The notes under the pieces are model-generated. The model saw only the letters and a program-made list of their open reading frames with translations, ran no database searches and was not told the origin of the DNA. A stretch of DNA of 64,000 nucleotides from an uncultured archaeon (GTDB lineage Archaea; Thermoproteota; Bathyarchaeia; Bathyarchaeales; Bathycorpusculaceae), in NCBI GenBank assembly GCA_963782915.1, contig CAWALK010000025.1, positions 75,704 to 139,703 on the forward strand. The letters are read 5' to 3'. How positions within the stretch are numbered: the stretch's first letter is position 1; each line of letters opens with the position of its first letter. Shown one piece after another: positions 1,123-63,244 of the stretch. A program made the position numbers and the translations under genes.

Positions 1123-1340
1123 CAAAATTGCTTATAGGCGGCGGCTGGGGCTGGTTGCTGTTGACTGGCCGACTATTCCTGTATGGTTCAGGCTAGCGCC
1201 CGACTGTATTGTGCTGTTCAATGCTGCTCGTTGTTTGCAGTCAGTCTTTATATAAGGGAGGGGGAGGGTCTTCTGAGGTAGGTAGGTCTAGTCTTTTTGT
1301 GCTTTTAATAGGGGTAGGGGGTCGTTGGCAAAGCAGCAAA
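1123..1340. repeat. Composite dispersed intergenic repeat (module X 1123-1230 plus CCCCTCCCTTATATAAAG modules on minus strand 1243-1340)
   Basis: Aligns by eye with 35147-35250, and as reverse complement with 5160-5256 and 52460-52557. Confidence 0.8.
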
Positions 1341-2954: not shown

Positions 2955-4945
2955 ATGGTTCAAAAAGAAGTCAAAAAGAAAACTGGCATTTACGCATTAG
3001 TAGCTGTGCTTTCGGCTGTTGTTTTAGTTTCTATGGTTTATTCATTGGGTTCTTACCCGGCGCTTTCGCCCGTCGCTCAATTGCCTGCGGTTTCGGGCAT
3101 GAAAACTTTTTCGTCAGTGGATGAAATAAAAAATTATTTGAATTCAAACTCGCTTAATTCGCCTTTAGTATCTTCACCTAACGAATATTGGGCGCGACCC
3201 GATGCGGCATTTACTTCGGGCTCAACCGATAAGGGTACCTACGGAGTAACTACTGATTACTCAACCACAAACATACAGGTTGCAGGAGTAGATGAGGCAG
3301 ACACCGTAAAAACAGACGGCCAATACATCTACACCCTATCCAGCAAACAATCTATCAGTCCATACTACTCATACGATTCCTTTTCTCAGGCAAGCAACAA
3401 CATCTACATAGTAAGCGCTAACCCACAAAACCCCTGATGTTATATCCAAAATTGTCTTAGACAAACAATCTACTCCAATGGGGATTGTTTCTAAGCTCCG
3501 ATAGCAAAAAACTGGTTGTATTCGAAAGCAAATACCAAAGTTCCCCCTATGGTTCAAGAGAAATAACGATTATGCCCTACTACAGCAGCCAATTCACCGC
3601 CATCTACGTCTATGATATCTCAAACAAAGCATACCCCACTTTAGCTCGCAACTTAACTGTGACTGGAAACTATTTCAATTCACGTATGATCGGCAACTAT
3701 GTTTACGCGGTAACAAGCCAAAGCGCCTACATCTATGACGATGTTGTGCCGGTTCCAGCCCTCTACAACGGCGGTACCGTTTCTGCCTCTTCCCCTTCAA
3801 GTATCTACTACGCAGACATGAACCAATCCAGTAGTTACTCCTTCACAAGCTTCTACGGATTAGACCTATCAAACGATTTGGAGCAACCCGCCAAAATGAC
3901 CGTGCTCATGAGCGGCGCCAGTACAATGTATGTTTCCCCAGATAACATCTATGTCGCTTACCCCAACTGGGTAAACGGCTCCGGCGTAACCGCCATTTAC
4001 AGAGTAAAAATCGACGGTTTACAGTTAACCCTTCAAGCACAAGGCAATGTTCCCGGCTACACGATTAATCAGTATGCCATTGACGAATACAGCGGTAACC
4101 TGCGAATAGCCACTAATCTCTGGCAGTACACTGCTCAAAGCGATGTTTTCGGTGGACAGCAGGGTGCACAAATCAACAACGTCTATGTCCTCGACCAGAA
4201 TCTCACCATTATCGGTAGACTTGAGGGTTTAGCAGTCGGCGAAAACCTCCATTCCGTTCGATTCATGGGTGAACGGGGCTATTTGGTCACGTTTAAAACG
4301 ACTGATCCTCTCTTTGTCATCGACTTAAGTCAACCCAGTAACCCAACGGTGCTAGGCGAACTCGTAATCCCAGGCTACTCGGATTATCTGCACCCATATG
4401 ACGCGACACATTTGATCGGTGTGGGAAAAGAAGCTGTTGACTCAGGCCATGACTTCGCTTATTACCAAGGCGTCAAGTTAGCGCTCTTTGACGTTAGCAA
4501 CGTAAACAATCCAATTCAGGTAGCGAACTATGTCATCGGCGACAGAGGCACCGACTCAGCGGTTCTAAATGACCCCAAAGCTTTCCTCTTCGACAAAACC
4601 AAAGACCTGCTTGTAATGCCCATTAGTTTGGCGTTGGTAAGTGAAGAAAATCGGCAGCAACAAGGCAGCGCTGCTTATGGCCAAACCGTTTGGCAAGGCG
4701 CATACGTCTTTAGCGTTTCAGCAAACGGCAACTTTACACTAAAAGGCACCGTAACACACCTAGACGCTTCATTGCTAAACAGCACAGGATACCTAAACGA
4801 CAGCAACAACTACTACACAACCCAAAACCAGTGGATAACACGCTCACTCTACATCGACAACACACTCTACACCATCTCAAACTCCGAAGTCAAACTCAAC
4901 AGCCTAACCAACCTCTCAGAAATCGCCACAGTGCACCTATCATAA
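2955..4945 (+). CDS. Secreted beta-propeller domain protein (Beta_propel family), frameshifted near 3435
   Basis: YSTTNIQVAGVDEADTVKTDG, GENLHSVRFMG, LVTFKTTDPLFVIDL and PGYSDYLHP motifs across two frames. Confidence 0.85.
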
Positions 4946-4988
4946 AACATCTTAATTCTTCCTTTTTTTCTTGTCAGAGCTCAACTGC

Positions 4989-5256
4989 ATTTTTTTCTCT
5001 ATCCCCCTTATTTATAGGCTCAACAAGTGTAGGCTCAAAGTCAAATGGGCAATGCATCCATTAGGGAAAGTATTGCGTTCAGCAGGCGTTTGTTGGTTAA
5101 CCACTGATTATTTGATGCATTTGCAATTTAAGCCTGCTCAGCTTGCGGTGCCCGAGCTTTTGTTGCTCTGCCAAGACCGCCCTATCCCCTACAAAAAGCA
5201 TCAAAAGAAGGGACCTACCTACCTCAGAAGACCTCCCCCTCCCTTATATAAAGACT
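4989..5256 (+). repeat. Dispersed ~270-bp intergenic repeat, long copy
   Basis: Highly similar over its full length to 52290-52557. Confidence 0.9.
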
Positions 5257-5359
5257 CAATATCTGTTGGCTAAGCTGATGCCTGCATGCACATGCGTTAA
5301 GATGTTCCATATTCTGTTGGGCGACTGTGGGGTTAGGCTGGTTTTCTGTGAGCGTTTGC

Positions 5360-5478
5360 CGCAGTCCTGCAAGCGCAAAGGGCAAACAGTCGCCGATAAA
5401 GCATCCACCGCAAGTCGCAGGGTAGCCCGATTAGCCGAATGCCACAAATACAGAAGGCGGGTTACAACCAATACACCA
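5360..5478 (+). ncRNA. rnpB: 3' portion of archaeal RNase P RNA (partial/degenerate; 5' half not found)
   Basis: GCAAAGGGCAAA...GGGTAGCCC (P15-like pairing), TAGCCGAATG and ACAGAAGGCGGGTTAC (conserved 3' P4 strand); no GAGGAA.. 5' signature seen upstream. Confidence 0.65.
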
Positions 5479-5635
5479 CCCAATTAACTGCCGCAGAAAC
5501 AATTAATTTCCGCTTCGCTCCTTTATAGCGAGTAGCTCTGCTTCTGCGCTTTCTTTGGGAAAAAAAGTTGCAAAATCTTCTATGCCTTCCGCTGATCAAA
5601 TATTGATCTATTTTTTACGAAAAGAACTGCGTTTT

Positions 5636-5908
5636 CTAAAGCATATTTACTGCTTCTTGTCGGGGTATCGCTACAAGTGTTTCGGTTGTTACCCATTTGG
5701 AAATGCCCATTGCAGTTTTTAGAGCTTCCTTTTCGTTTGCTGCCTCAAAAATAAATACAACATCATATTGTCCCAGTGTCCAATACCAATTTAGCACTTT
5801 TATTCCCTTTTTCTTGTACTCCTCAATTAGTTGTGTGGCGTCTCCTGCTGTTTCTTTTGTGGGGGTTATTATGAATTTGTTTAGGCTTACAAAAATCAAA
5901 TCATTCAC
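5636..5908 (-). CDS. GYD domain protein
   Basis: YWTLGQYDVVFIFEA and terminal TETLVAIP motifs. Confidence 0.8.
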   Translation of the reverse strand: MNDLIFVSLNKFIITPTKETAGDATQLIEEYKKKGIKVLNWYWTLGQYDVVFIFEAANEKEALKTAMGISKWVTTETLVAIPRQEAVNML

Positions 5909-6199
5909 CTCCGGCCCATAGAAAACTCCAAGAAAAATTCATTTGAATCTAATTAAATAACGTTATTTCAAGCCTTTCTTTGAATCTGCCTGAACCAATC
6001 AGGCTCAATCCTCAAATTCAACCCCCAGTTTCTTCCATGTATAGAGCTAAACCTCTAAGGTGGGTTACAACCAATACCCGACCCAATTAGTTAACCTCCA
6101 TGCAAGTAGGAATCCGTTTTTCGTTGACAGGCAATTATAAAACACGAAATAAAAGAAAGAGAGATTTCGTTGACGATTTACCGCATAAAACTTGCGTTA

Positions 6200-6835
6200 T
6201 ACCATCGGTTAAACGCATGGGCTAATTTTTTAGCCACTGCTCTCAACACCAGTCTCAATCGTCTCGGTCTCTTCGGGTGAAGCTGTACGCATTTGTTTTT
6301 TGCTTTTTATCTTTTGCTCCTTTGCCCTTTACTTCTTCTTCTGTTAATGTGGTTTCTATCGGTACTTTTTCCTTCGAAGCCCCGACATAATGCATCTGCT
6401 ACTTCTAGGAGTTTTAGTATGGCTTGCTCGGAAAACATTCCACTAGTCCTGATAATCCTGCAATTACAACCACATTTAATGCCATAACTGCTGCGCCAAT
6501 CGTTAATAACCCTCCTCGAATTAAAAGATAGAAAATAAAGGCTACCCCCGCTCCGAGAAGTGGTCGAACAGCATACCATGATCTGTACCGCACATAATCA
6601 AAATCGTTCTCTCTACCTAAATGGTGAGACGCTGCCCAGAGGAAAAAAGGCATGCACTCTATGGCGCCTGAAACCATCATAACAACAACAAGCAGAGTTT
6701 CATGCGACCCACAAACGATAGAACCGAACGTGTGAAAAGGAAATTATCCGATTGTAGTGTTAATATCGTTAATTTGATTAAAAGCAGGTAAGTTGTATGA
6801 TTGAATGTGCTTGTAGCATTGAGATCCGGAATCTT
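6200..6835 (-). pseudogene. Fragmented membrane protein
   Basis: Overlapping hydrophobic fragments (WYAVRPLLGAGVAFIFYLLIRGGLL; GMFSEQAILKLLEVADAL) in different frames; ends approximate. Confidence 0.5.
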
Positions 6836-7113
6836 CTGTGGCAGCAGGCCAAGCACCTATCATACAAATATGCCGGATAACGAGAAGTATTACGAGTTGA
6901 ATATATTATCAGATAGACGTGCTCCCTTTCGGTCAGAATCATCTGTTTGATGTACCATAAATTTAACCTATAATTCAATTAACAGGTCTAAGTATTTAAG
7001 ACTTAATAAAATGACCATATATAGCTTGCAATAATGAACATATGGCGATGGATTGGTTATAGAAAATTACTGATCCTTAAGGCGGGTTACAACCAATACA
7101 CCACACCACTTCT

Positions 7114-7959
7114 TTACCTTTTTAGCGTATCTTCCAGAAAGCAAGGGCTCTGTTCTTGCAATACGATATTAGTTCTAAGATAATTTGAATAATTGAGAAT
7201 AGTAAAAGAGGCGTAACTGGCAACTAACTGGCTTTGCAATTTTTCGTCTGCTAAGGTCCTATAGCCCTTATTTATAGTACTGAAGTTAGGATGATGACCA
7301 AAGCTAAGATAAAGAGCGCTAAAGCAGCGTAGTATAGGCCATATTTTAGTTTCTTTGCGAAGGACGGGGCTCTCCTCAACCCATAAACCGATGCTGAACA
7401 TTAGGATTACGGCTATTATCCATGACAAGTAGAGTGCTGTTTGGATGTAGAGCCCAAACAATCCTAGGATTATCGGCACCAATATTACAAATGCTGCCCC
7501 ACCATTCAAACCCATATCAGCCAAAATTATCGTGGCGCTTTCTTTGTAGGGTGGATGTTTCTCTTGCTCACTTTGGGCAAGGTTAGCGACCACATTATCA
7601 ATGATTTTCTTCTTGTCCTCATCATTTACTACATTGAAGACTGAATCCTCAAGGTCTTCCTCCACCATGCCACGGCTTAGTCTTCGCTTTTCCTCTGACT
7701 TCGCATAATCGATCATAGCGTTCTTCCTCTTGGCAGTGTGGTAGTTTTCGAATACGTAAAAGATTCCATCAGCAAAACCCCAAATGAGGCAATAGCCCAT
7801 AGAAGAAGCGATTACGTAGATGACTGCGATGTCAGTTATAATTGGGCTTCCCCATATTACGGGGTTTCTAAGAGTAGCGGTCAGGGCTAATGTCATTATG
7901 ACTCCAAAGATGGGTTCAGACGAGAACCAGAACCGTCCGAAATAATCCGATAGCCCCAA
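7114..7959 (-). CDS. VIT1/CCC1-like multi-pass membrane protein (C-terminus probably frameshifted)
   Basis: SEPIFGVIMTL...LIWGFADGIFYV pattern and several TM segments. Confidence 0.6.
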   Translation of the reverse strand: MGLSDYFGRFWFSSEPIFGVIMTLALTATLRNPVIWGSPIITDIAVIYVIASSMGYCLIWGFADGIFYVFENYHTAKRKNAMIDYAKSEEKRRLSRGMVEEDLEDSVFNVVNDEDKKKIIDNVVANLAQSEQEKHPPYKESATIILADMGLNGGAAFVILVPIILGLFGLYIQTALYLSWIIAVILMFSIGLWVEESPVLRKETKIWPILRCFSALYLSFGHHPNFSTINKGYRTLADEKLQSQLVASYASFTILNYSNYLRTNIVLQEQSPCFLEDTLKR

Positions 7960-8253
7960 AAACAGTTCCTCATGATGTTAAGCAAAATAGGGCACTTAAC
8001 AATTTGTGGCTTCATAACAATGCCAACAGACATCTAAAGGCTTATAACTAGAGCGTAACGAAGGATGATCAGTGTTTAAAATTGAGTGAAGATAATAAGA
8101 AATTACTAAGCCCAAAGGCGGATTACAACCAGCAAACCTGTCGGTCATCTGGACAGAACCTGCCGCCAATAGTAACCTGAAAAACTCATAATTCAGACTA
8201 CTTTTTAGAAAGACTTGAGTACCCAAAAGTGCACTGTTTGAGTAGTGACCTTT

Positions 8254-8835
8254 ATGGCAGACAAAATTTCTTTGGGCGCTAATTCTTTTGCCCCAGTAAC
8301 CCCCGTTTGGGTAGTCGGCACATATGACCATGCTGGAAAACCGAATGCTATGACGGCTGCATGGGCAGGGGTTTGCTGCTCTAAACCTCCATGCGTTTAT
8401 GTTTCACTAAGAAAAGCTACCTACACATACGGCAACCTCATGGAGCGTAAGGCGTTTACTGTTAGTTTTCCCTCGGAGGCTTATGTTAAAGAAGCTGACT
8501 ATTTTGGGATGGCTTCGGGGAGAGATTCTGACAAGTTCGCAGTTACTAAGCTTACGCCTGTGAAAAGTGATCTTGTGGATGCACCGTACGTGGGGGAATT
8601 TCCAGTAATCTTGGAGTGCAAGGTAATCAATATAGTTGAAATCGGGTTGCATACGATGTTTATCGGCGAAGTCCTCGATGTTAAAGCCGACAAGAGCGTG
8701 CTAGGTGAGAATGGGATGCCTGATGTTGAGAAAGTGAAGCCGCTGATCTGGAGTATGGCAAACATGTCCTATCGCAAGGTCGGAGGGCACGTGGGGAAAT
8801 CGTTCTCGGTTGGCAAGGATGTAAGCAAATCTTAG
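8254..8835 (+). CDS. Flavin reductase family protein (flavoredoxin-like)
   Basis: PNAMTAAWAG, ADYFGMASGRDSDKF, ECKV...GLHTMFIGEV. Confidence 0.9.
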   Translation: MADKISLGANSFAPVTPVWVVGTYDHAGKPNAMTAAWAGVCCSKPPCVYVSLRKATYTYGNLMERKAFTVSFPSEAYVKEADYFGMASGRDSDKFAVTKLTPVKSDLVDAPYVGEFPVILECKVINIVEIGLHTMFIGEVLDVKADKSVLGENGMPDVEKVKPLIWSMANMSYRKVGGHVGKSFSVGKDVSKS

Positions 8836-8883
8836 TTATCAAATAGTTCACCTTGCAAAAGCTACTGCTTCATTCCTAATTTT

Positions 8884-8929
8884 GACCCCTAAACTCCTCT
8901 TCCCTATCTTAAGGCATATAAGGAGACTT
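8884..8929 (+). repeat. Repeat family B (GACCCCTAAA...TTCCCTA...GACTT), copy 1
   Basis: Aligns with 32499-32542(-), 44054-44098 and 45779-45823. Confidence 0.8.
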
Positions 8930-9030
8930 GACAGCAAAAATTCAGCAAGCCAGCATACGGTTGATAAGCGTACAAGATACGGATAATGTATTTATTAATC
9001 GTGAAACAGATTGATACTTAGGTGTTTTAA

Positions 9031-9318
9031 GTGATAAGTTTTGAAAATTTAATTGGTTATAAAGTGTTAACTTCTGAAGCTTTTTCTTTGGGCGTTGTTA
9101 AAGGAGCGTTAGTTGACACTGAGAAATGGACCATAACATATTTGCATGTAAAAATAAACGATGAAGCAGCAACAAGGCTTGGATTCAAGAAGCGGTTTAG
9201 AAGTTCTACCATATGCCTGCCCGTCAGTATGGTTAAGGCTATTGGAGATTACGTTACAATTGGCAGATCCTTAGACGAGTTAAGCGAATCTCAAGAGATT
9301 ACTGAGTGCAACGAATAA
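9031..9318 (+). CDS. PRC-barrel domain protein
   Basis: LIGYKVLTSEAFSLGVV...VDTEKWTITYL; paralog of 55727-56056. Confidence 0.8.
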   Translation: MISFENLIGYKVLTSEAFSLGVVKGALVDTEKWTITYLHVKINDEAATRLGFKKRFRSSTICLPVSMVKAIGDYVTIGRSLDELSESQEITECNE

Positions 9319-9380
9319 GCAGGCAAAAGTGCTATAGTTCTCGAGAATATGGGTAAAGAGACGTTAAAAAAAGGGTTTAG

Positions 9381-9545
9381 TTAGAGTTTTCTTTTGGCTT
9401 TGCCGACGTCTTCTTGGATTTTTCCTTGTACTTTTTCTGCTTCGCCCTTGATTATTTGACCAGTGTTGCCAGTAGCTTTGCCCGTGCCTACGCGGATTTT
9501 GCCTTCTTCCTGTTTGAGTTTACCTTTAACTTCGTCTTTGCTCAT
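9381..9545 (-). CDS. CsbD-like general stress protein (54 aa, not in ORF track)
   Basis: MSKDEVKGKLKQEEGKIRVGTGKATGNTGQIIKGEAEKVQGKIQEDVGKAKRKL. Confidence 0.8.
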   Translation of the reverse strand: MSKDEVKGKLKQEEGKIRVGTGKATGNTGQIIKGEAEKVQGKIQEDVGKAKRKL

Positions 9546-9830
9546 AAAATTTCACTAACAGACTGGTGTCTCCACGATTGTATAAGCATATGTGACTGCT
9601 AACAGGCACTAACAAGCAACAAGCCATCGCAAATTCTTTTTTGTTGTTAAAGGATCTATTTAGAGATTGGGGTGAGATGGTTTCTTGAAAACCGTTTGAT
9701 TGGTCGAATGCAGTCACGAGAGCACGTTGTTTCTTGTTTTTCTTCGTCTTTCTTGCCGAATTTCGTTTTTTGTTAGTTCCCGTAAATAATATACGCATGA
9801 AATAATCTCAAACCTTCTTTACGCCAATTA

Positions 9831-10208
9831 TTAGTAACTTTTCTCCACAGATAGGGCATGTTTGCTTAGGAGAATACGAAGCCAATGACAAAACCCACGA
9901 CTAGTCCTAAACCAAGTGGCAGAATGCCCATGAGAAGTACCCCATATTGAACTACAATAGGGACCATAAGTGTCTGCAATGCTTTGCAAGGCACCAAGAC
10001 TTAAGCCGAAAAACCCAAAATAGGCGACCACGACCAATATAATGGCAGCTATAATCGCAATTTTTAGTACCTTGTGGAATAGGTAGCCGACGATAAGGCC
10101 AATGACAAATGGAATAATCATCAAAACTAATGGTGGAATACCCCCTATGCTTCCAGAAGTGATAAAATTAATGACTTGGTCTATGGCACTCAAAATAAGC
10201 GACTCCAA
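9831..10208 (-). CDS. Small membrane protein (FUN14-like), 3' end probably frameshifted
   Basis: PFVIGLIVGYLFHKVLKIAIIAAIIL hydrophobic pattern. Confidence 0.55.
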   Translation of the reverse strand: MESLILSAIDQVINFITSGSIGGIPPLVLMIIPFVIGLIVGYLFHKVLKIAIIAAIILVVVAYFGFFGLSLGALQSIADTYGPYCSSIWGTSHGHSATWFRTSRGFCHWLRILLSKHALSVEKSY

Positions 10209-10427
10209 ACAAGTAAGGGGGTGATTACAGAGGCTATTAAACGCACGTTGTTGCAGTCACGCAGTCACAAGGTTTGGATATCCCTAAAGGGCATTCTCCC
10301 AGCAAGCAATGGCTCTGTCTTGCAACAATAATCCGATAATCTGAAATTCATTAAAAAATGTAAAGAGCGCATAGTAAAAGTCCTTATTCTGGCAAAACAG
10401 AGAATAAACCAATCTTAGGTGTTTTGA

Positions 10428-10658
10428 ATGAGCGAAAAACAACAAGGCAAACTTTTTGACAAAATGTGGGAACTACTTGGCTCTAAAATGATTGATTCAG
10501 GAAAACAAAACGTAGCAGAAGTGGAGAAACTTTTCAAAACGGTACTATACGAGGCAAAAACAGATTTCCCCAGAATAACCGAATACGGTAGCTTCTTTTA
10601 CGCTGACGGCGAGAAAGAAGCCATCATATGGTATAAAAAATGGTTTGGCGCTCCCTAA
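10428..10658 (+). CDS. Hypothetical protein
   Basis: ATG with AGGTG SD; protein-like composition. Confidence 0.6.
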   Translation: MSEKQQGKLFDKMWELLGSKMIDSGKQNVAEVEKLFKTVLYEAKTDFPRITEYGSFFYADGEKEAIIWYKKWFGAP

Positions 10659-10914
10659 CACCGAGTTAGCCGTCAATACATCTTCTGTCAATTTCAGAAA
10701 ATGGGGTCGTTCCCCACTCTCAATTGTAAGAACCCCTCCGCTTTGCTGTGCTACCGGTACAACAACACATCTTTTTTAAAGAATTACATCTTCCCTCTTA
10801 GCGGATGTCACATTTTGAATAAGGCAGAAGCCACAAATCTGCTCAGACAAATAATTTCATTTTGAAGGATTAAGCGCAGAAACAGAAATTTTTTTTCTTT
10901 GAGCACCAAATAAG

Positions 10915-11295
10915 TTGAAGCTTCTAGGTGATTTTTTGGATAAAAATCAAGCACTTAAATTGTTAGAGGAGATAAAACTGAACTGTCCACGGATTGACGA
11001 AAAAACGGTGTCTTTGAATGAATCAAATGCTTTGGATGTAGCTTCAAGAGGTTTTCAGATATTTGTCGGTGGAATAGACAAAGATGATCGTACATGTATC
11101 AGAAAAGCAATAGGCCAATACGATTATCTCATCAAGGAAGGTCCCGACCGTATGATCATCTATGACCCTGCAGAGTTGAAGTGTCCCGAATGCGGCAAAA
11201 TATTTGAAACAACAAGGGAACTAAAGACACACATAACAGGGGTACATTATAGCAAGGAATTTGAACAAACCGAGATGCCAACCGGCGAAATGTAA
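10915..11295 (+). CDS. Hypothetical protein with C2H2-type zinc finger
   Basis: CPECGKIFETTRELKTHITGVH. Confidence 0.7.
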   Translation: MKLLGDFLDKNQALKLLEEIKLNCPRIDEKTVSLNESNALDVASRGFQIFVGGIDKDDRTCIRKAIGQYDYLIKEGPDRMIIYDPAELKCPECGKIFETTRELKTHITGVHYSKEFEQTEMPTGEM

Positions 11296-11789
11296 CTCTC
11301 GGATTCCTTACTGCCGGTGATTACCCAGTAATGCAATCTTGCCTTTGAGCAACCATAGGCAACAAGCGTATGAAAAACAATCTCGACTAAACACATGGAT
11401 ATTGAGGAGCCCTTATGCTTAAGGGGCAAACTATTATGGCATCCATAACATTGTTATTGCTTAACAATGGGTGGATGGCAAAGACTTGTGTACTTTTGCC
11501 CAATCGTGCACACTTCCCCTCCCTTCCACCCATTGCGGTTTACCCCTAAAGCAGCAAAGCTCTGCTCCGAAACCGTTCGAGGGGCCTGCAAAAAGAGCCG
11601 TTTTTTGGTATTTTGGGCAGCCGTAGAGGGAAATGCAAAATGTATCCTGAAGTATGAATTGAAGTTACAAATTGTATTCTCACTCTGTTGCTAACGGATG
11701 TTAAATACTACTTGCACTCACAGGCAAATTAAGCGAACACACGAAAGCTAGTGTTTTCGCTAAAAAATTATTTAGAGGAAAAACAGCGA

Positions 11790-14470
11790 ATGAAAATACA
11801 AAATAAAAGAATAACAACAATGTTTTCATTGATATTGATACTTTCAATCGCAGCCTCAATGGCACTATCACCAACAATAAAGGGACAAGTCTATCCCCCC
11901 TCAGGCACACACATACCAACTTATTCTTTCATCAACGTCTACCCTAACCCCGCAGGAATCGGCCAAACAGTCACGGTGAACTTCTTCCTTTCCACGCCTC
12001 CAGAAAACGGAGCCCAAGGCGGAGTACCCACAAACATGTCGGTGCTCGTCACCTATCCGGACGGCTCAGTTAAATCTCTGGGAAACGGCAACTTTACAGG
12101 AGACCAAACAGGCGGAACATTCACAACCTTCACCCCAACCGCAACCGGCAACTATTCATTCAAATTCGTTTACGGCGGCCAAACACTCGGCGGCGTACGC
12201 TCAGCAACCAACTATGCAAACCTAATCCTTGACCCAAGCGAAAGCAAACCCGTCATACTCAGTGTACAAGAAGAACCCGTCATGGAAACCTCTTGGCCAG
12301 TAACACCGCTTCCAACAGAATATTGGCAAACACCGGTATCCGCACAGAACGTCCAAGAATGGTACAAAATCATGGGACCCTGGCTTGGACTGGGCGCAAA
12401 CACATTTGCACAAACAGGCGCTTACAACTCCACAAGCTACACTAACCCCTACACTACATCAGTAAACAGCGGCCACGTAATGTGGACCAAAGTTTGGGCA
12501 GCAGGCGGTATAGCAGGCGGAGACTTAGGCGGAAACGAAATCGACAGCAGCTACTGGGCAACCAGACAATACCAACCACAATATGCACCGGTCGTCATCA
12601 ACGGCATCATGTACTCAACACAGTTCCCCGATGACATGGGCACAAACATGGCATACGGCCTCCTCGCAACTGATTTGTACACTGGAAAAACGATGTGGAC
12701 ACTCAACACAACCAACCCACTACGGTGCGGTATGGTCATGAGTTATAAACACATTAACCAGTACGGCGCTATCGGACCATTCCTATGGACCACAGGCACC
12801 CTACCGGCATCTGACACAGGCGGCAGCTTAATCCCAAACAGCGGCACCCAATGGAACATGTACGACGCCTTAACAGGCATGTACGTCTTAAGCATAACCA
12901 ACGGCACAACCATGACACTGCGCACCGACGAAAGCGGCGGCCTAATCGGCTACTACGTCAACAACACAGTCGGAGCATGGAGCGAAATGACACATCCAAC
13001 ACCTGGCCAAAACGTAATAGCAAACGGCACAGGCCCACACTTAACATGCGTAAACATGACTATGGCTATTGGACAAACAGGCGGCTCATGGCAAGTAGGT
13101 AAAAACACAGTACGTGCAATGAACACCGGCGAAATGTGGTCAGTACAATTACCGTCAAACATTTCAGGTGCTCAAATCAGCCCCGCCCTATCACTCAGCG
13201 GCATAACCGGCGACGCAGTCGTCTTGAACTCAGGATGGGTTCACGGCGCAGGAACCGGCGGCGAAATGGCAGGCTGGTTAGTCATGGTAAGCATAGACCA
13301 AAACGACGGACACCTACTCTACTCAGCAAACTTAACCTACGCCCAAGGATACAAAACCCTACTCCCATACACTAGAACCAACAGTGCATTCGGCGACGGC
13401 AAACTCTTCATAGAAAACGAAGCAAGCTACGGAGTCGAAGCCATCGACGTACGCACAGGCGCACTAGTCTGGTCTAAAACATTCACAGGCGACAACGGCG
13501 CAGCACCAAACATTTACGACAACTTCGGCTTAAAACACTACATCTCAAACGGCAAACTCATCACCGAAGGCTTAGGAGGCGACGTATGGTGCCAAAGCAC
13601 AGCCACAGGCGAATTCCTATGGTACACCAACACAACCAAACTCATTGGTTCACCGGGAATCGAAACACCCTATGGCATCTGGCCACTCTGGGTCTTCAAC
13701 TGTGCAGCATTCACAAACGACGTAGCATACCTCCCAGTCGGACACGAATATAACCCACCACTATTCCACGGCGCACAAATGATCGCAGTCAACCTAACCG
13801 ACGGCAGCTTAGTCTGGAGCGAACTCGGCATGTACATCCGATCCACAGAAGTCAGCTACGGCATCATGCTATCACTAAACGCATACGACAACCAAATCTA
13901 CGCATACGGTAAAGGACCAACCCAAACAACCATCGCAGCCCCAAACATGGGAGTAACCACTGCAACCCCAATCACCATCACAGGCTCAGTAACCGACATC
14001 TCAGCAGGCACACAACAAAACGAAATCGCCCTAAGATTCCCCAACGGAGTACCAGCAGTCTCTGATGCAAGCCAAAGCAGATACATGGAATACATCTACC
14101 AGAAACAAGCCGCACCCAGCGACGTACAAGGCGTACCAGTCACATTAAACGTAGTTGATGCAAACGGCAACACAAGAACCATCGGCATGACCACAACAAA
14201 CTCTATGGGCACATTCGGCTTCAACTGGACCCCCGACATTGCAGGCGCATACACCATAACAGCAAGCTTCGGCGGCTCCGAATCATACTATAAATCACAA
14301 GCCTCAACAGTGCTCTATGCAGCTGAATCAGCAACCACAGCACCAACCACCACAACACAAACAGGTTAGCAACAACAGCTGATTTAATGCTCTACATGGC
14401 AGTCGGCGTAGTTGCAATCATCATTGCAATTGCAATCCTTGGTCTGCTCATCCTAAGAAAACACGCATAA
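11790..14470 (+). CDS. Large secreted PQQ-like beta-propeller surface protein with C-terminal TM anchor (frameshift near 14365)
   Basis: Signal peptide, repeated D..TG..W propeller motifs, GHEYNPPLFHG, LNAYDNQIYAYGKGP; TM tail LMLYMAVGVVAIIIAIAILGLLILRKHA in an alternate frame. Confidence 0.85.
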
Positions 14471-52289: not shown

Positions 52290-52557
52290 ATTTTTTTCTC
52301 TATCCCCCTTATTTATAGACTCAACAAGTGCAGGCTCAAAGCCAAATCAGCAATGCATCCATAAGGAGAGAATTGCGTTCAGCAGGCATTTGCTGGTTAA
52401 CCACTGATTATTCGGTACATTTGCAATTTAAGCCTGCTCAGCTTGCGGTGCCCGAGCTTTTGTTGCTCTGCCAAGACCTCCCTATCCCCTATAAAAAGGT
52501 AAAAAGAAGGGACCTACCTACCTACCTCAGAGGTACCTCCCCCTCCCTTATTTAAAG
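52290..52557 (+). repeat. Dispersed ~270-bp intergenic repeat, long copy
   Basis: Highly similar to 4989-5256. Confidence 0.9.
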
Positions 52558-52646
52558 CCCCAAATCCACGTCTAATAGTATCGCAGTAGCAAAAAGCAAC
52601 TTTACTACCCTGTAGCATGAGTTACTGAAAAATCGTTTTTTCGACT

Positions 52647-60524: not shown

Positions 60525-61607
60525 ATGAGCCGCTTTGCCATAAGAAAACCCGGAGTTTACATAGAAGAAATAAGTATCCAACCCAAATCAATCGAGGGAG
60601 TGAGCACCAGTACGGCAGCGTTTTTAGGGGAAACGCAAATCGGCCCAGACGCGCCTACATTAATCACCGGTTGGTTGCAGTTTCAGTCTGTTTTCGGGGG
60701 CTATTTTGGAGTGGATGAGTTTCTGCCTTTTGCGGTTGAGGGCTTCTTTGCTAACTGCGGTCAACGATGCTATATTTGCAGGGTTTCGAGTGGGGATTAT
60801 GCGTCGGCGTTGGCTAAACTTGAAGCAGTCGAGGAGATTTCGATTATTTATTCGCCTAACGCGCAGGCAGTGGCTGGCCTTGCCGATGCAATCATTGGGC
60901 ATTGTGAGCGACTCAAAAACAGATTCGCCATTTTCGATTCCATAAAAGGGCAAACCCCAACAAACATCACCAAGCCACTTGCTTCCTCCTACGCCGCCCT
61001 CTATTACCCATGGATTGCTGTTAAGCAGAACGGGGCGGGGCAGACATATCTGGTTCCACCAGGAGGGCATATAGTCGGAATTTACGCCCACACAGATGTT
61101 GAGCGGGGTGTTCATAAGGCACCGGCCAACGTGTTAGTCCAAGGCGCAGTCGGCTTAGAATATGCAGTAACCAAAAGCGAGCAGGACAACCTCAACCCAG
61201 AGGGCATCAATTGCATCCGCAACTTCGAAGGCAGAGGCATCCTTGTTTGGGGTGCAAGAACACTCTCAAGCGACCCCGAATACAAGTACATCAGCGTACG
61301 TAGGTTGCTGATTTATCTTGAACAATCCGTAAAGAAGGGGACGGCTTGGGTGGCTTTTGAGCCTAATAACGAGGTTACTTGGGCTAAAGTGAAGGTGCAA
61401 ATCCAAACTTTTCTAACCCAAAGTTGGAAAAACGGCATGTTACTGGGTTCAACGCAGCAGGAAGCTTACTTTGTCCGCTGCGATAAAACAACCATGACTC
61501 AAAACGACCTCGACAACGGCCGATTAAACGTGCTTATCGGTGTGGCAGTGACTAAGCCAGCGGAATATGTGATTTTGCGTGTGAATCAAAAGATAGTTAA
61601 CCCTTAG
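60525..61607 (+). CDS. Contractile phage-tail / eCIS sheath protein (orphan)
   Basis: PGVYIEE, AALYYPW, VPP.GH..G.YA.TD..RGVHKAPAN, LNPEGINCIR.F.GRG..VWGARTL, YISVRRL, FEPN, PAEY. Confidence 0.92.
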   Translation: MSRFAIRKPGVYIEEISIQPKSIEGVSTSTAAFLGETQIGPDAPTLITGWLQFQSVFGGYFGVDEFLPFAVEGFFANCGQRCYICRVSSGDYASALAKLEAVEEISIIYSPNAQAVAGLADAIIGHCERLKNRFAIFDSIKGQTPTNITKPLASSYAALYYPWIAVKQNGAGQTYLVPPGGHIVGIYAHTDVERGVHKAPANVLVQGAVGLEYAVTKSEQDNLNPEGINCIRNFEGRGILVWGARTLSSDPEYKYISVRRLLIYLEQSVKKGTAWVAFEPNNEVTWAKVKVQIQTFLTQSWKNGMLLGSTQQEAYFVRCDKTTMTQNDLDNGRLNVLIGVAVTKPAEYVILRVNQKIVNP

Positions 61608-62020: not shown

Positions 62021-63244
62021 ATGACTATGCGAAAAATAAGTAAGGTCTTAGCTGTACTGATAGCCGTTATAATCCTAAGTTCGATTGTTGCCTTTCAATT
62101 ATCAACCGTAAAGGGGCAGTCTAAGATAATAGTTGTACCAGACGACTATCCAACAATCCAGTCAGCAGTAGGTAATGCAAGTGCAGGAGACACAGTATTT
62201 GTAGAGAAAGGAATCTACAGAGAAAATATAATTATCGATAAGCCGTTGACTTTAACGGGCGAAAGCAATCAAGATACAATAATCGATAGCGTACCTAAGC
62301 GTTTTGAAAATAACCCGACAATCGCGGTTGAAGCTGACGATGTTACGATAAGCGGGTTTACGATATCTAGTGGCTATAACGGTGTCTCCATAGGGAATTT
62401 TAGTGGATGCAGAGTAGTTAGTAACATTATTAGTAATAACCTTGAAAGGGGCGTCCTATTAGGTGGCGAGGACGCTCTTGTTATTGGAAACGATTTCATA
62501 GGAAATACTTTTTGCGGAATACACGTCTACTTCTCAAAGAACAGTCAAGTCTCCAGCAATACAATAGGTGGAAGTTACTTTTCAGAGGTTGGAGTAATCA
62601 TTGACTCCAGCGTTAACATAACAATCACAAATAACACCATATCAAAAAATGGGCTGTCCAACGAACCGGATAGTCACAGGGGCGGAATACGGCTAGGAAG
62701 AAGCGTGTCATGCAATGTATTTGGAAACGCTATCTTTGACAACCATGGTTACGGTGTGATGTTTGCAGAGGACGTGAACTATGCTCAAGTCCATGATAAC
62801 AGCATAGCCCACAATAATGTTGGCGTTGAATTGTTTAACTTCCTAATATTTGGAGAAGACCAGATTGGCGTTCAAAACCAATTGTGGAATAATAATTTGA
62901 GGAATAACATTCAACAAGCGGTAGTGCGCAGTGGGCTATCTGGAGTGCTACCAAACCCGCCTTATACCAATGGCACCGGCATCGTTTCTTGGGATAACGG
63001 TGCAGTTGGCAATTTTTGGAATGACTACAATGGCAATGGCTCATATGTTATCGATGAGAATAACGTTGACCATTATCCTTTGCCACAGCAAGTAAATATT
63101 CCTGTACCAACCCCCAATATGCCGAGTAATAGAAATGCACCCCATTTAAAGTTGACAGATTACCTACTGCCAATCAGCATTATAGTGGCAATCATTATTT
63201 TGGTATCAGTTTTGGCTCTTAGAAGGCATCAAAAAACCCACTAA
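62021..63244 (+). CDS. NosD/CASH parallel beta-helix surface protein
   Basis: IVVPDDYPTIQSAV.NA.AGDTVFV..GIY.E, WDNGAVGNFW, D.YPL, C-terminal TM; paralog of 32549-33760. Confidence 0.88.
   Translation: MTMRKISKVLAVLIAVIILSSIVAFQLSTVKGQSKIIVVPDDYPTIQSAVGNASAGDTVFVEKGIYRENIIIDKPLTLTGESNQDTIIDSVPKRFENNPTIAVEADDVTISGFTISSGYNGVSIGNFSGCRVVSNIISNNLERGVLLGGEDALVIGNDFIGNTFCGIHVYFSKNSQVSSNTIGGSYFSEVGVIIDSSVNITITNNTISKNGLSNEPDSHRGGIRLGRSVSCNVFGNAIFDNHGYGVMFAEDVNYAQVHDNSIAHNNVGVELFNFLIFGEDQIGVQNQLWNNNLRNNIQQAVVRSGLSGVLPNPPYTNGTGIVSWDNGAVGNFWNDYNGNGSYVIDENNVDHYPLPQQVNIPVPTPNMPSNRNAPHLKLTDYLLPISIIVAIIILVSVLALRRHQKTH

Follow-up and report, generated by a model that had tools for sequence, protein, structure and literature searches.

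The 3′ end of the RNase P RNA gene as a probable attachment site for stacked integrative elements in a genus of Bathyarchaeia

We analysed a stretch of 64,000 nucleotides (nt) from an uncultured archaeon of the Bathycorpusculaceae (Bathyarchaeia; assembly GCA_963782915.1, contig CAWALK010000025.1, positions 75,704 to 139,703), hereafter the window, in which the 3′ end of the RNase P RNA gene, rnpB, recurs four times and encloses three short intervals. By comparative sequence analysis, on which all of what follows rests, the rnpB 3′ end emerges as a genuine attachment site in this genus, at which integrations appear to stack in tandem: relatives contain integrase-bearing elements that are bounded by the rnpB end and by its direct repeat. 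The first-pass annotation of the window had proposed such a site, with stacking, and this part of its account is borne out. We are fairly confident that the locus in the window is itself such a stack, with three integrative elements, all decayed, on a copy of the rnpB end that has become detached from the gene, and the comparison indicates that elements in this group of Bathyarchaeia favour rnpB, rather than a tRNA gene, as a landing site.

A displaced rnpB end and its repeats

The Rfam model of archaeal RNase P RNA (RNaseP_arch, RF00373) aligns to window positions 5340-5477 on the forward strand (33.7 bits, E = 3.3e-7). As this score lies below the gathering score of 84 and 154 of the 288 model positions are missing, the match represents a 3′ fragment and not a full RNase P RNA. 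The genome to which the window belongs (G000, a metagenome-assembled genome (MAG) in 25 contigs with 2.35% estimated contamination, in which the array lies on contig C25) has its sole full rnpB on another contig (C15:218743-219046, 184.5 bits), and this gene aligns to window 5364-5478 with 91% identity over 116 columns (blastn, E = 2e-32). The RNase P RNA signatures noticed at first sight are thus those of the rnpB 3′ end, but rnpB itself, which had been placed at the locus, is not there: the array hangs on a displaced fragment (5361-5478, +) that holds roughly the last 113 nt of the gene.

This fragment, a long att copy of the F type (core copy 1), ends in a putative recombination core of 25 nt (5454-5478, +). 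Its 21-nt end motif occurs without mismatch at 5454 and 7079 and with one mismatch at 6057, none being expected from 100 shuffles; a further copy at 8115, with 4 of 21 positions mismatched, was found with a profile of all repeats (E = 4.8e-5). All the direct repeats reported at the outset, including the degenerate last one, are therefore where they had been placed. The cores of copies 1 to 3 bear the rnpB variant of G000 itself. Within the fragment, the first half has diverged and the final ~60 nt hardly differ from the host rnpB, which would fit an element-borne arm joined to host sequence. A shortened but genuine RNase P RNA was also considered for the fragment and rejected, given that the P4-bearing part is absent and the full gene lies elsewhere. 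At the gathering cut-off, an Rfam scan of the whole window returned only 5S rRNA, and no tRNA was found in the window.

The rnpB 3′ end across the genus

We surveyed 101 genomes of the genus, one per species and G000 included, whose records bear Bathy-6 or MCG-6 names; many are fragmented, and as relatives they are not independent observations. A full rnpB was found in 84 of them. The 25-nt rnpB end (≤3 mismatches) is present at least twice in 48 of the 101 genomes and, as a reversed-pattern control, in none, although in G035, which is among the 48, the two copies are the ends of two full rnpB matches. Where contigs allow, the extra core copies are found beyond the 3′ end of rnpB and on its strand, with spacings that range from 0.57 to 8.6 kb, and the repeats carry each genome's own rnpB variant (for example, ACATCC in all three copies of G008).

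In 17 of the 84 genomes with a full rnpB, comparison of coordinates shows an integrase gene, or what is left of one, no more than 150 nt downstream of rnpB. Type A integrases account for 11 of these (G109, G098, G050, G008, G061, G010, G040, G067, G111, G033 and G031) and type B for three (G003, G086 and G076), both on the same strand as rnpB; the three others (G092, G081 and G015, to which a second copy in G067 can be added) are of type C, which is convergent to rnpB and ~30% identical to type B. The PF00589 domain was confirmed in the open reading frames (ORFs) directly after the rnpB end in G008, G003 and G061, and after a detached fragment in G013. Searched against one genome per species, the type A alignment yielded 27 loci, with 26 Bathyarchaeia/Thermoproteota records, several of them named Bathy-6 or MCG-6. 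Of these 26 type A loci, 21 have a core on the same strand at most ~120 nt upstream of the integrase, and one more has the rnpB body directly upstream, which brings the number to 22; in 16 of the 26 there is a full rnpB upstream; relatives with the full gene at the left end of the element include G003, G008, G061, G072 and G068. At the level of the class, a scan of 151 genomes (five of them from this genus) with RF00373 gave, beyond the match in the window, two contig-edge fragments below threshold, the short repeats being undetectable by such a scan.

These observations would make an essential ribozyme gene an integration hot spot in about half of the genus, and hence a new class of integration target. 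Extra copies of the rnpB end would also provide a simple marker for mapping mobile elements in Bathyarchaeia, where few have been delimited, and for annotation they suggest that sub-threshold RNase P matches in these genomes are att fragments and not degenerate genes.

Some genomes contain two or three full-length rnpB matches (G035, G067 on three contigs, G116, G145 and G172), with two full copies 5 kb apart on one strand at G116:C6:92530-98204, and at locus L073 two inverted rnpB copies surround an integrase gene. Extra full-length copies may represent whole-gene att duplications, inversions or bin contamination.

The core within the integrase reading frame

The putative crossover core, that is, the last ~25 nt of rnpB (AAGGCGGGTTACAACCAAYACACCA), can be read in the frame AAG GCG GGT TAC AAC CAA CAC ACC as K A G Y N Q H T. 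Many of the short repeats are preceded by a conserved stretch that does not derive from rnpB (…AAATTACTAAGCCCAAAGG) and that translates, together with the core, as M-S-E-E-I-S-x-K-K-L-L-S-P-K-A/G-Y-N-Q-H-T, with length variants that stay in frame; other arm families are also present in relatives. An in-frame start 8-30 codons upstream, open to the core, occurs in 23 of 41 short repeats, as compared with 8 and 6 in the other two frames (17 of 41 compared with 6 and 2 if only ATG is counted). At the left junction (attL), the core frame opens into the integrase (Int), both in type A (415 amino acids (aa) in G008, 388 in G061 and 350 in G050) and in type B (316 aa in G003 and 310 in G096).

A scan of metagenome contigs for the same stub and core, separate from the genus survey, gave 38 contigs. 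In 37 of these, the frame closes 8-57 codons past the core, as in the right junction (attR). In the remaining one (L107), it runs on to the contig end as the N terminus of an Int that is 84% identical over 70 aa (E = 1e-42) to the rnpB-adjacent Int of G061, which represents the unsplit attP form. There, at L107 896-1180, the core lies within the first ~25 codons of the unsplit integrase gene (int), a TATA-like box stands upstream and the contig ends after 95 codons.

We propose that several lineages of tyrosine integrases would use the last ~25 nt of rnpB as their crossover core, with recombination taking place somewhere within these 25 nt, and that in types A and B this core would lie inside int, ~15 codons past the start. 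Because the core is within the int reading frame, integration would leave a start-stub at the far end of the element: the bulk of int would become fused to the rnpB end (attL), while ~15 codons of stub and the core would remain at attR. Repeated integration into any of the core copies would build tandem arrays. As only ~15 codons are removed, and as an in-frame ATG inside rnpB restores a start in G008 (giving an int ORF of 422 aa), the split may not inactivate the integrase, which may still be active.

Integrases at various stages of decay are found in place in the relatives, from genes with stops (G050 and G040) to split genes (G010 and G067) and fragments (G111, G033 and G031), and further to a 69-aa stub in G072 and a core fused to a C-terminal Int remnant in G064. 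The cargo of Int-bearing elements includes a PLD nuclease, AAA_15/AAA_21 ATPases and VapBC. Defence-like cargo was seen at L051 2481-3668, L017 12158-12997, L019 8973-10379 and L030 7424-8581, in the form of PLD-like nucleases, an AAA_15/AAA_21 ATPase and a KAP NTPase with an AbiEi-like domain. Given this cargo, the rnpB arrays are likely to be small defence and accessory islands.

In the window, copy 4 (8115-8139, +; 8082-8139 with its stub) is degenerate and has an attR-type junction of the type A element family: its in-frame stub reads TTG-SEDNKKLLSPKA/DYNQQT, a sequence also found in relatives and in the 38 metagenome contigs. Copy 3 (7079-7103, +; 7034-7103 with its stub), which is identical to the rnpB end at 25 of 25 positions, is another attR-type junction and has a diverged in-frame stub (..YRKLLILKA/GYNQYT, in ORF 7034-7183). 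No integrase start-stub precedes copy 2 (6057-6081, +), where a stop stands four codons upstream in the core frame. Preceded as they are by the start-stub of a split integrase gene, copies 3 and 4 would be the right ends of ordinary integrative elements, with copy 1 as the gene-like left end, and all three intervals would have lost the integrase part and kept a piece of cargo.

Several points weigh against such a stack of decayed elements. No integrase remnant was found by tblastn (E ≤ 10) in window 4000-12000 or at a second locus of this kind on contig C12 of G000, so that we infer, and do not observe, that the intervals once held integrases. Three independent deletions must each have removed int and yet spared the cores, for which the decay series of the relatives is the only precedent, and copy 2 has no stub. 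The flanks of the rnpB gene on C15 and those of the array on C25 are both syntenic with the rnpB neighbourhoods of relatives. Finally, the conserved stub is abutted by different genes in different genomes, as a cassette model would likewise predict, and a conserved 0.75-kb unit with VapB and PIN genes takes different array positions in four genomes.

As noted first for the window, each interval has one main ORF, on the minus strand. Interval 1 encodes a GYD-domain protein of 90 aa (5636-5908, −), for which the initial label is upheld by PF08734 (E = 4.3e-12), and interval 2 a hydrophobic ORF of 88 aa (6414-6680, −) with no Pfam match at E ≤ 1. In interval 3, a 281-aa ORF (7114-7959, −) encodes a membrane protein that had been labelled VIT1-like; it matches no Pfam family, PF01988 included, even at E ≤ 1, and the label has to be dropped. 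Its orthologues are of ~230 aa. One of them, with 89% aa identity, lies in the last interval of the rnpB array of G008; others adjoin rnpB in G107 and, elsewhere in the genome, a different integrase in G064. The membrane protein gene is accessory cargo. An ORF beside the terminal stub of G001 was examined as a possible relative of this protein and is unrelated.

The first-pass annotation had taken the locus for an integron-like array, in which units of 0.6-1 kb between att cores are themselves mobile and are captured or excised singly by an integrase acting in trans. We consider this unlikely, although several findings speak in its favour. Short intervals without an integrase are common in the genus (0.57, 0.67, 0.72, 0.74, 0.77, 0.8 and 1.0 kb), unrelated genes abut the same conserved stub, and in formal terms a compatible integrase could act on any unit that has a core on either side. 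The 0.75-kb unit, with genes for VapB (PF02697) and a PIN toxin (PF01850) and a long rnpB fragment at its end, is found in four species (L032 (G072:C27) 8002-8755, G096:C5, G068:C52 and G055:C6) at differing array positions. Against it, the conserved arm is accounted for more simply as the first ~15 codons of int than as a cassette site, and int decay intermediates are seen in place in relatives. Moreover, the four repeats form no attC-like hairpin (folding z-scores of 1.05, −0.48, 0.42 and −1.04), there is no platform of integrase, attI and promoter at or near the locus, and the genes run antisense to the array. A search of G000 for the recombinase that would have to be supplied in trans found no type A integrase; other tyrosine recombinases are represented there only by fragments, which do not lie near these loci. 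The core motif has no match in the viral contigs of IMG/VR, nor was a free small circle seen. As regards variable content between the repeats, in a species-level comparison the content differs between species, as it would at any integration hot spot, and the terminal unit (membrane protein gene, stub and core) is shared with G008 at 87% nt identity and in the same terminal position, as vertical inheritance predicts.

An integron comprises intI, attI, the promoter Pc and cassettes bounded by attC sites, which are imperfect palindromes. The rnpB arrays resemble integrons in their short, mostly single-gene units between copies of a recombination site and in the involvement of a tyrosine recombinase. 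They differ in the lack of an intI/attI/Pc platform, in sites that are copies of a target-gene end and not attC-type imperfect palindromes, in antisense genes with upstream regions of their own, and in a conserved arm that is an integrase start-stub. A further parallel may be offered by cis-mobilizable elements (CIMEs), the integrase-less remnants flanked by att sites that are described for streptococcal integrative and conjugative elements. Like CIMEs, the short units are bounded by att sites and have no recombination module, and a related neighbouring element could in principle move them; host domain, target gene and integrase architecture are different. As a bolder extension of the integrative-element reading, short integrase-less units may be mobilized in trans.

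A second alternative dispenses with mobile elements and sees the locus as a decayed second copy of rnpB, the end of which was locally duplicated in tandem. Full rnpB matches do occur in twos and threes in the genomes listed above, and Rfam weakly aligns window 5340-5376 to the first 37 model positions. However, what lies upstream of the fragment resembles the rnpB leader and 5′ end only at the level of shuffled sequence (130 of 500 shuffles score as high), the three intervals show no relatedness to one another, and integrases flank the same repeats in relatives. The integrase stubs on copies 3 and 4 largely refute the idea, and we regard it as very improbable. By the same shuffling result for the upstream 100 nt, an internally deleted rnpB with its own leader was rejected as a description of the fragment.

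Site-specific integration into tRNA and tmRNA genes is textbook knowledge. At islands of this (Islander) type, the far boundary can be recognized by a displaced copy of the target's 3′ end, as described in the part of the source available (PMC4383910), and tandem integration and integrase loss are on record for archaeal integrated elements in the available part of a review of archaeal tyrosine recombinases (PMC8371274). The rnpB elements would share with these islands a tyrosine integrase that targets the 3′ end of a stable RNA, an element that restores this end, stacking at one site and integrase loss that leaves remnants. Unlike in those islands, the target is the RNase P RNA gene, and detached fragments act as extra landing sites. 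Of the features of such elements, the array in the window retains the direct repeat of the target end; a full target gene at attL and an integrase beside the att site are absent from it and present in relatives. As targets of archaeal tyrosine recombinases, the review names tRNA genes, protein genes and intergenic sites, and the terms RNase P and rnpB do not occur in it (PMC8371274). Nor did we find rnpB as an archaeal integration target in the literature searched, which consisted of open-access papers without their supplements.

The integrases invite a second comparison, with the suicidal integrases of the SSV type (SSV1, pTN3 and pT26-2), in which the att site lies inside int and integration splits the gene into int(N) and int(C); the same review ties them to PF16795 and to hyperthermophiles (PMC8371274). 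The rnpB elements are alike in that attP is within the int ORF and int(N) and int(C) would be parted on integration. They are different in that the integrases of G008, G003, G013 and G061 match PF00589 only (E ≤ 0.01), together with weak SAM-like N-terminal domains, and in that they come from MAGs of Bathyarchaeia, with record names that suggest peat, bog and palsa. Furthermore, with only ~15 codons ahead of the split, int(C) retains all recognizable domains. An att core inside the 5′ end of a PF00589-type int suggests that the split-integrase design extends beyond the hyperthermophile families with PF16795, which bears on how this design evolves.

We lean, if only slightly, towards a more general proposal: that in Bathy-6 rnpB is the main landing site of several lineages of small elements, at least two of which have the att core in the first ~25 codons of a PF00589-type int, which would amount to a mesophilic counterpart of the suicidal split integrases, independent of them and directed at an RNA gene other than a tRNA gene, and that displaced rnpB fragments act as secondary pads that seed arrays at other places in the chromosome, including the one in the window.

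Origin of the detached site and its surroundings

Long fragments, with 50-115 nt of rnpB sequence and the core, occur in several genomes, both at the distal end of arrays that adjoin rnpB (G072, G103, G068, G096 and G059) and away from rnpB (twice in G000, and in G013, G055, G075, G087, G096, G103 and G109). At G013:C1 and G096:C7, such a fragment is combined with an intact Int, cargo and a stub at a distance from rnpB. Detached fragments can therefore receive elements, so that the window array could have been built in place on a fragment used as a secondary attB, the course that we prefer, at about even odds. In G109, a degenerate fragment lies 5.7 kb from orthologous HTH and beta-propeller genes, in opposite orientation, which makes it probable that the detached site is old.

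Against a simple origin in place speak genes that lie to the right of the array and that, in relatives, adjoin rnpB on its downstream side. The PRC-barrel gene, the gene at 9381-10289 and that of an 872-aa protein are found downstream of rnpB in G001, G012, G014, G010 and G072, as would be expected if the array had been built at the true rnpB and later parted from it by an inversion or translocation, perhaps mediated by the integrase between att copies or by way of a repeated module at 4989-5259. The presence of the rnpB variant of G000 itself in the cores of copies 1 to 3 would agree with this, and G055:C6 has a long fragment (60815-60839, −) and a full rnpB (234418-234721, +) that are inverted and 174 kb apart; chromosome-rearranging archaeal integrases are described in the available parts of two sources (PMC8371274; PMC5495485). 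We nevertheless hold such a rearrangement to be doubtful. The flanks of rnpB on C15 are likewise syntenic with relatives, on both sides and including G005 and G014, so that synteny does not decide the origin of the fragment. A break within the core would account for no more than ~25 nt and not for 113 nt of diverged rnpB, the junction between fragment and upstream arm is present twice in G000 (on C25 and C12), and the degenerate fragment near the orthologous genes of G109 speaks for an old detached site. The inverted pair of G055 is, for its part, the pattern that an att-mediated chromosomal inversion would produce.

The arm directly 5′ of the fragment (5230-5360, +) has a promoter-like TTATATA box at ~5244 and, as noted above, does not significantly resemble the true rnpB in its leader or 5′ end. 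Positions 62646-62884 of C12 match window 5230-5468 at 79% identity, spanning the arm-to-fragment junction. They belong to the second, more decayed locus (C12:62646-65636; L020 4646-7637), which has the same arm and a 40-nt fragment at 62845, followed by an interval of 2.7 kb with a NosD-like surface protein gene and, at its end, an 18-nt core copy at 65612. This NosD-like cargo was considered as a match of the cargo of the G008 element and set aside, with only 25% identity and unrelated neighbouring ORFs.

The repeated junction also bears on the least credible explanation, that a chimeric join in the MAG placed the rnpB end beside unrelated sequence. The 25 contigs and 2.35% estimated contamination of the assembly, as well as the highly repeated module just upstream, would allow for such an artefact. 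Yet the fragment differs from the true rnpB at ~10 of 113 positions and is therefore a separate copy, and a junction that occurs twice in G000 makes misassembly unlikely. The fragment, moreover, lies 81 kb inside its contig and has comparable detached counterparts in G013, G055, G075, G087, G096, G103 and G109. We give the artefact almost no weight.

The module in question (4989-5259), which lies to the left of the fragment and does not derive from rnpB, is an intergenic sequence of ~270 nt with two TATA-like boxes. Near-full copies are found in the window at 52290-52563 (90% identity) and at G000:C18:166595-166857 (85%), and G000 has ~100 partial copies genome-wide, one of them upstream of the 5S rRNA gene (window 1243-1340). 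The other copies match no Rfam family and gave nothing relevant with ARAGORN; the module could be a repeat that carries a promoter, or else a gene for a small RNA.

Beyond the array, the first gene encodes a flavin-reductase-like protein (8245-8835, +; PF01613, E = 1.8e-35) and is followed by the PRC-barrel gene (9031-9318, +; PF05239), homologues of which lie near or downstream of rnpB in G001, G002, G012 and G072 (85% nt identity in G072). Near the 5S rRNA gene, an ORF at 1462-2112 has a sub-threshold match to Snf7/ESCRT-III (25.5 bits, with a cut-off of 27.3). To the left of the array, a beta-propeller (PF09826) gene is split over the ORFs 2955-3437 and 3485-4945; its G109 orthologue is a single ORF of 684 aa, so that the gene in the window is likely a pseudogene or frameshifted.

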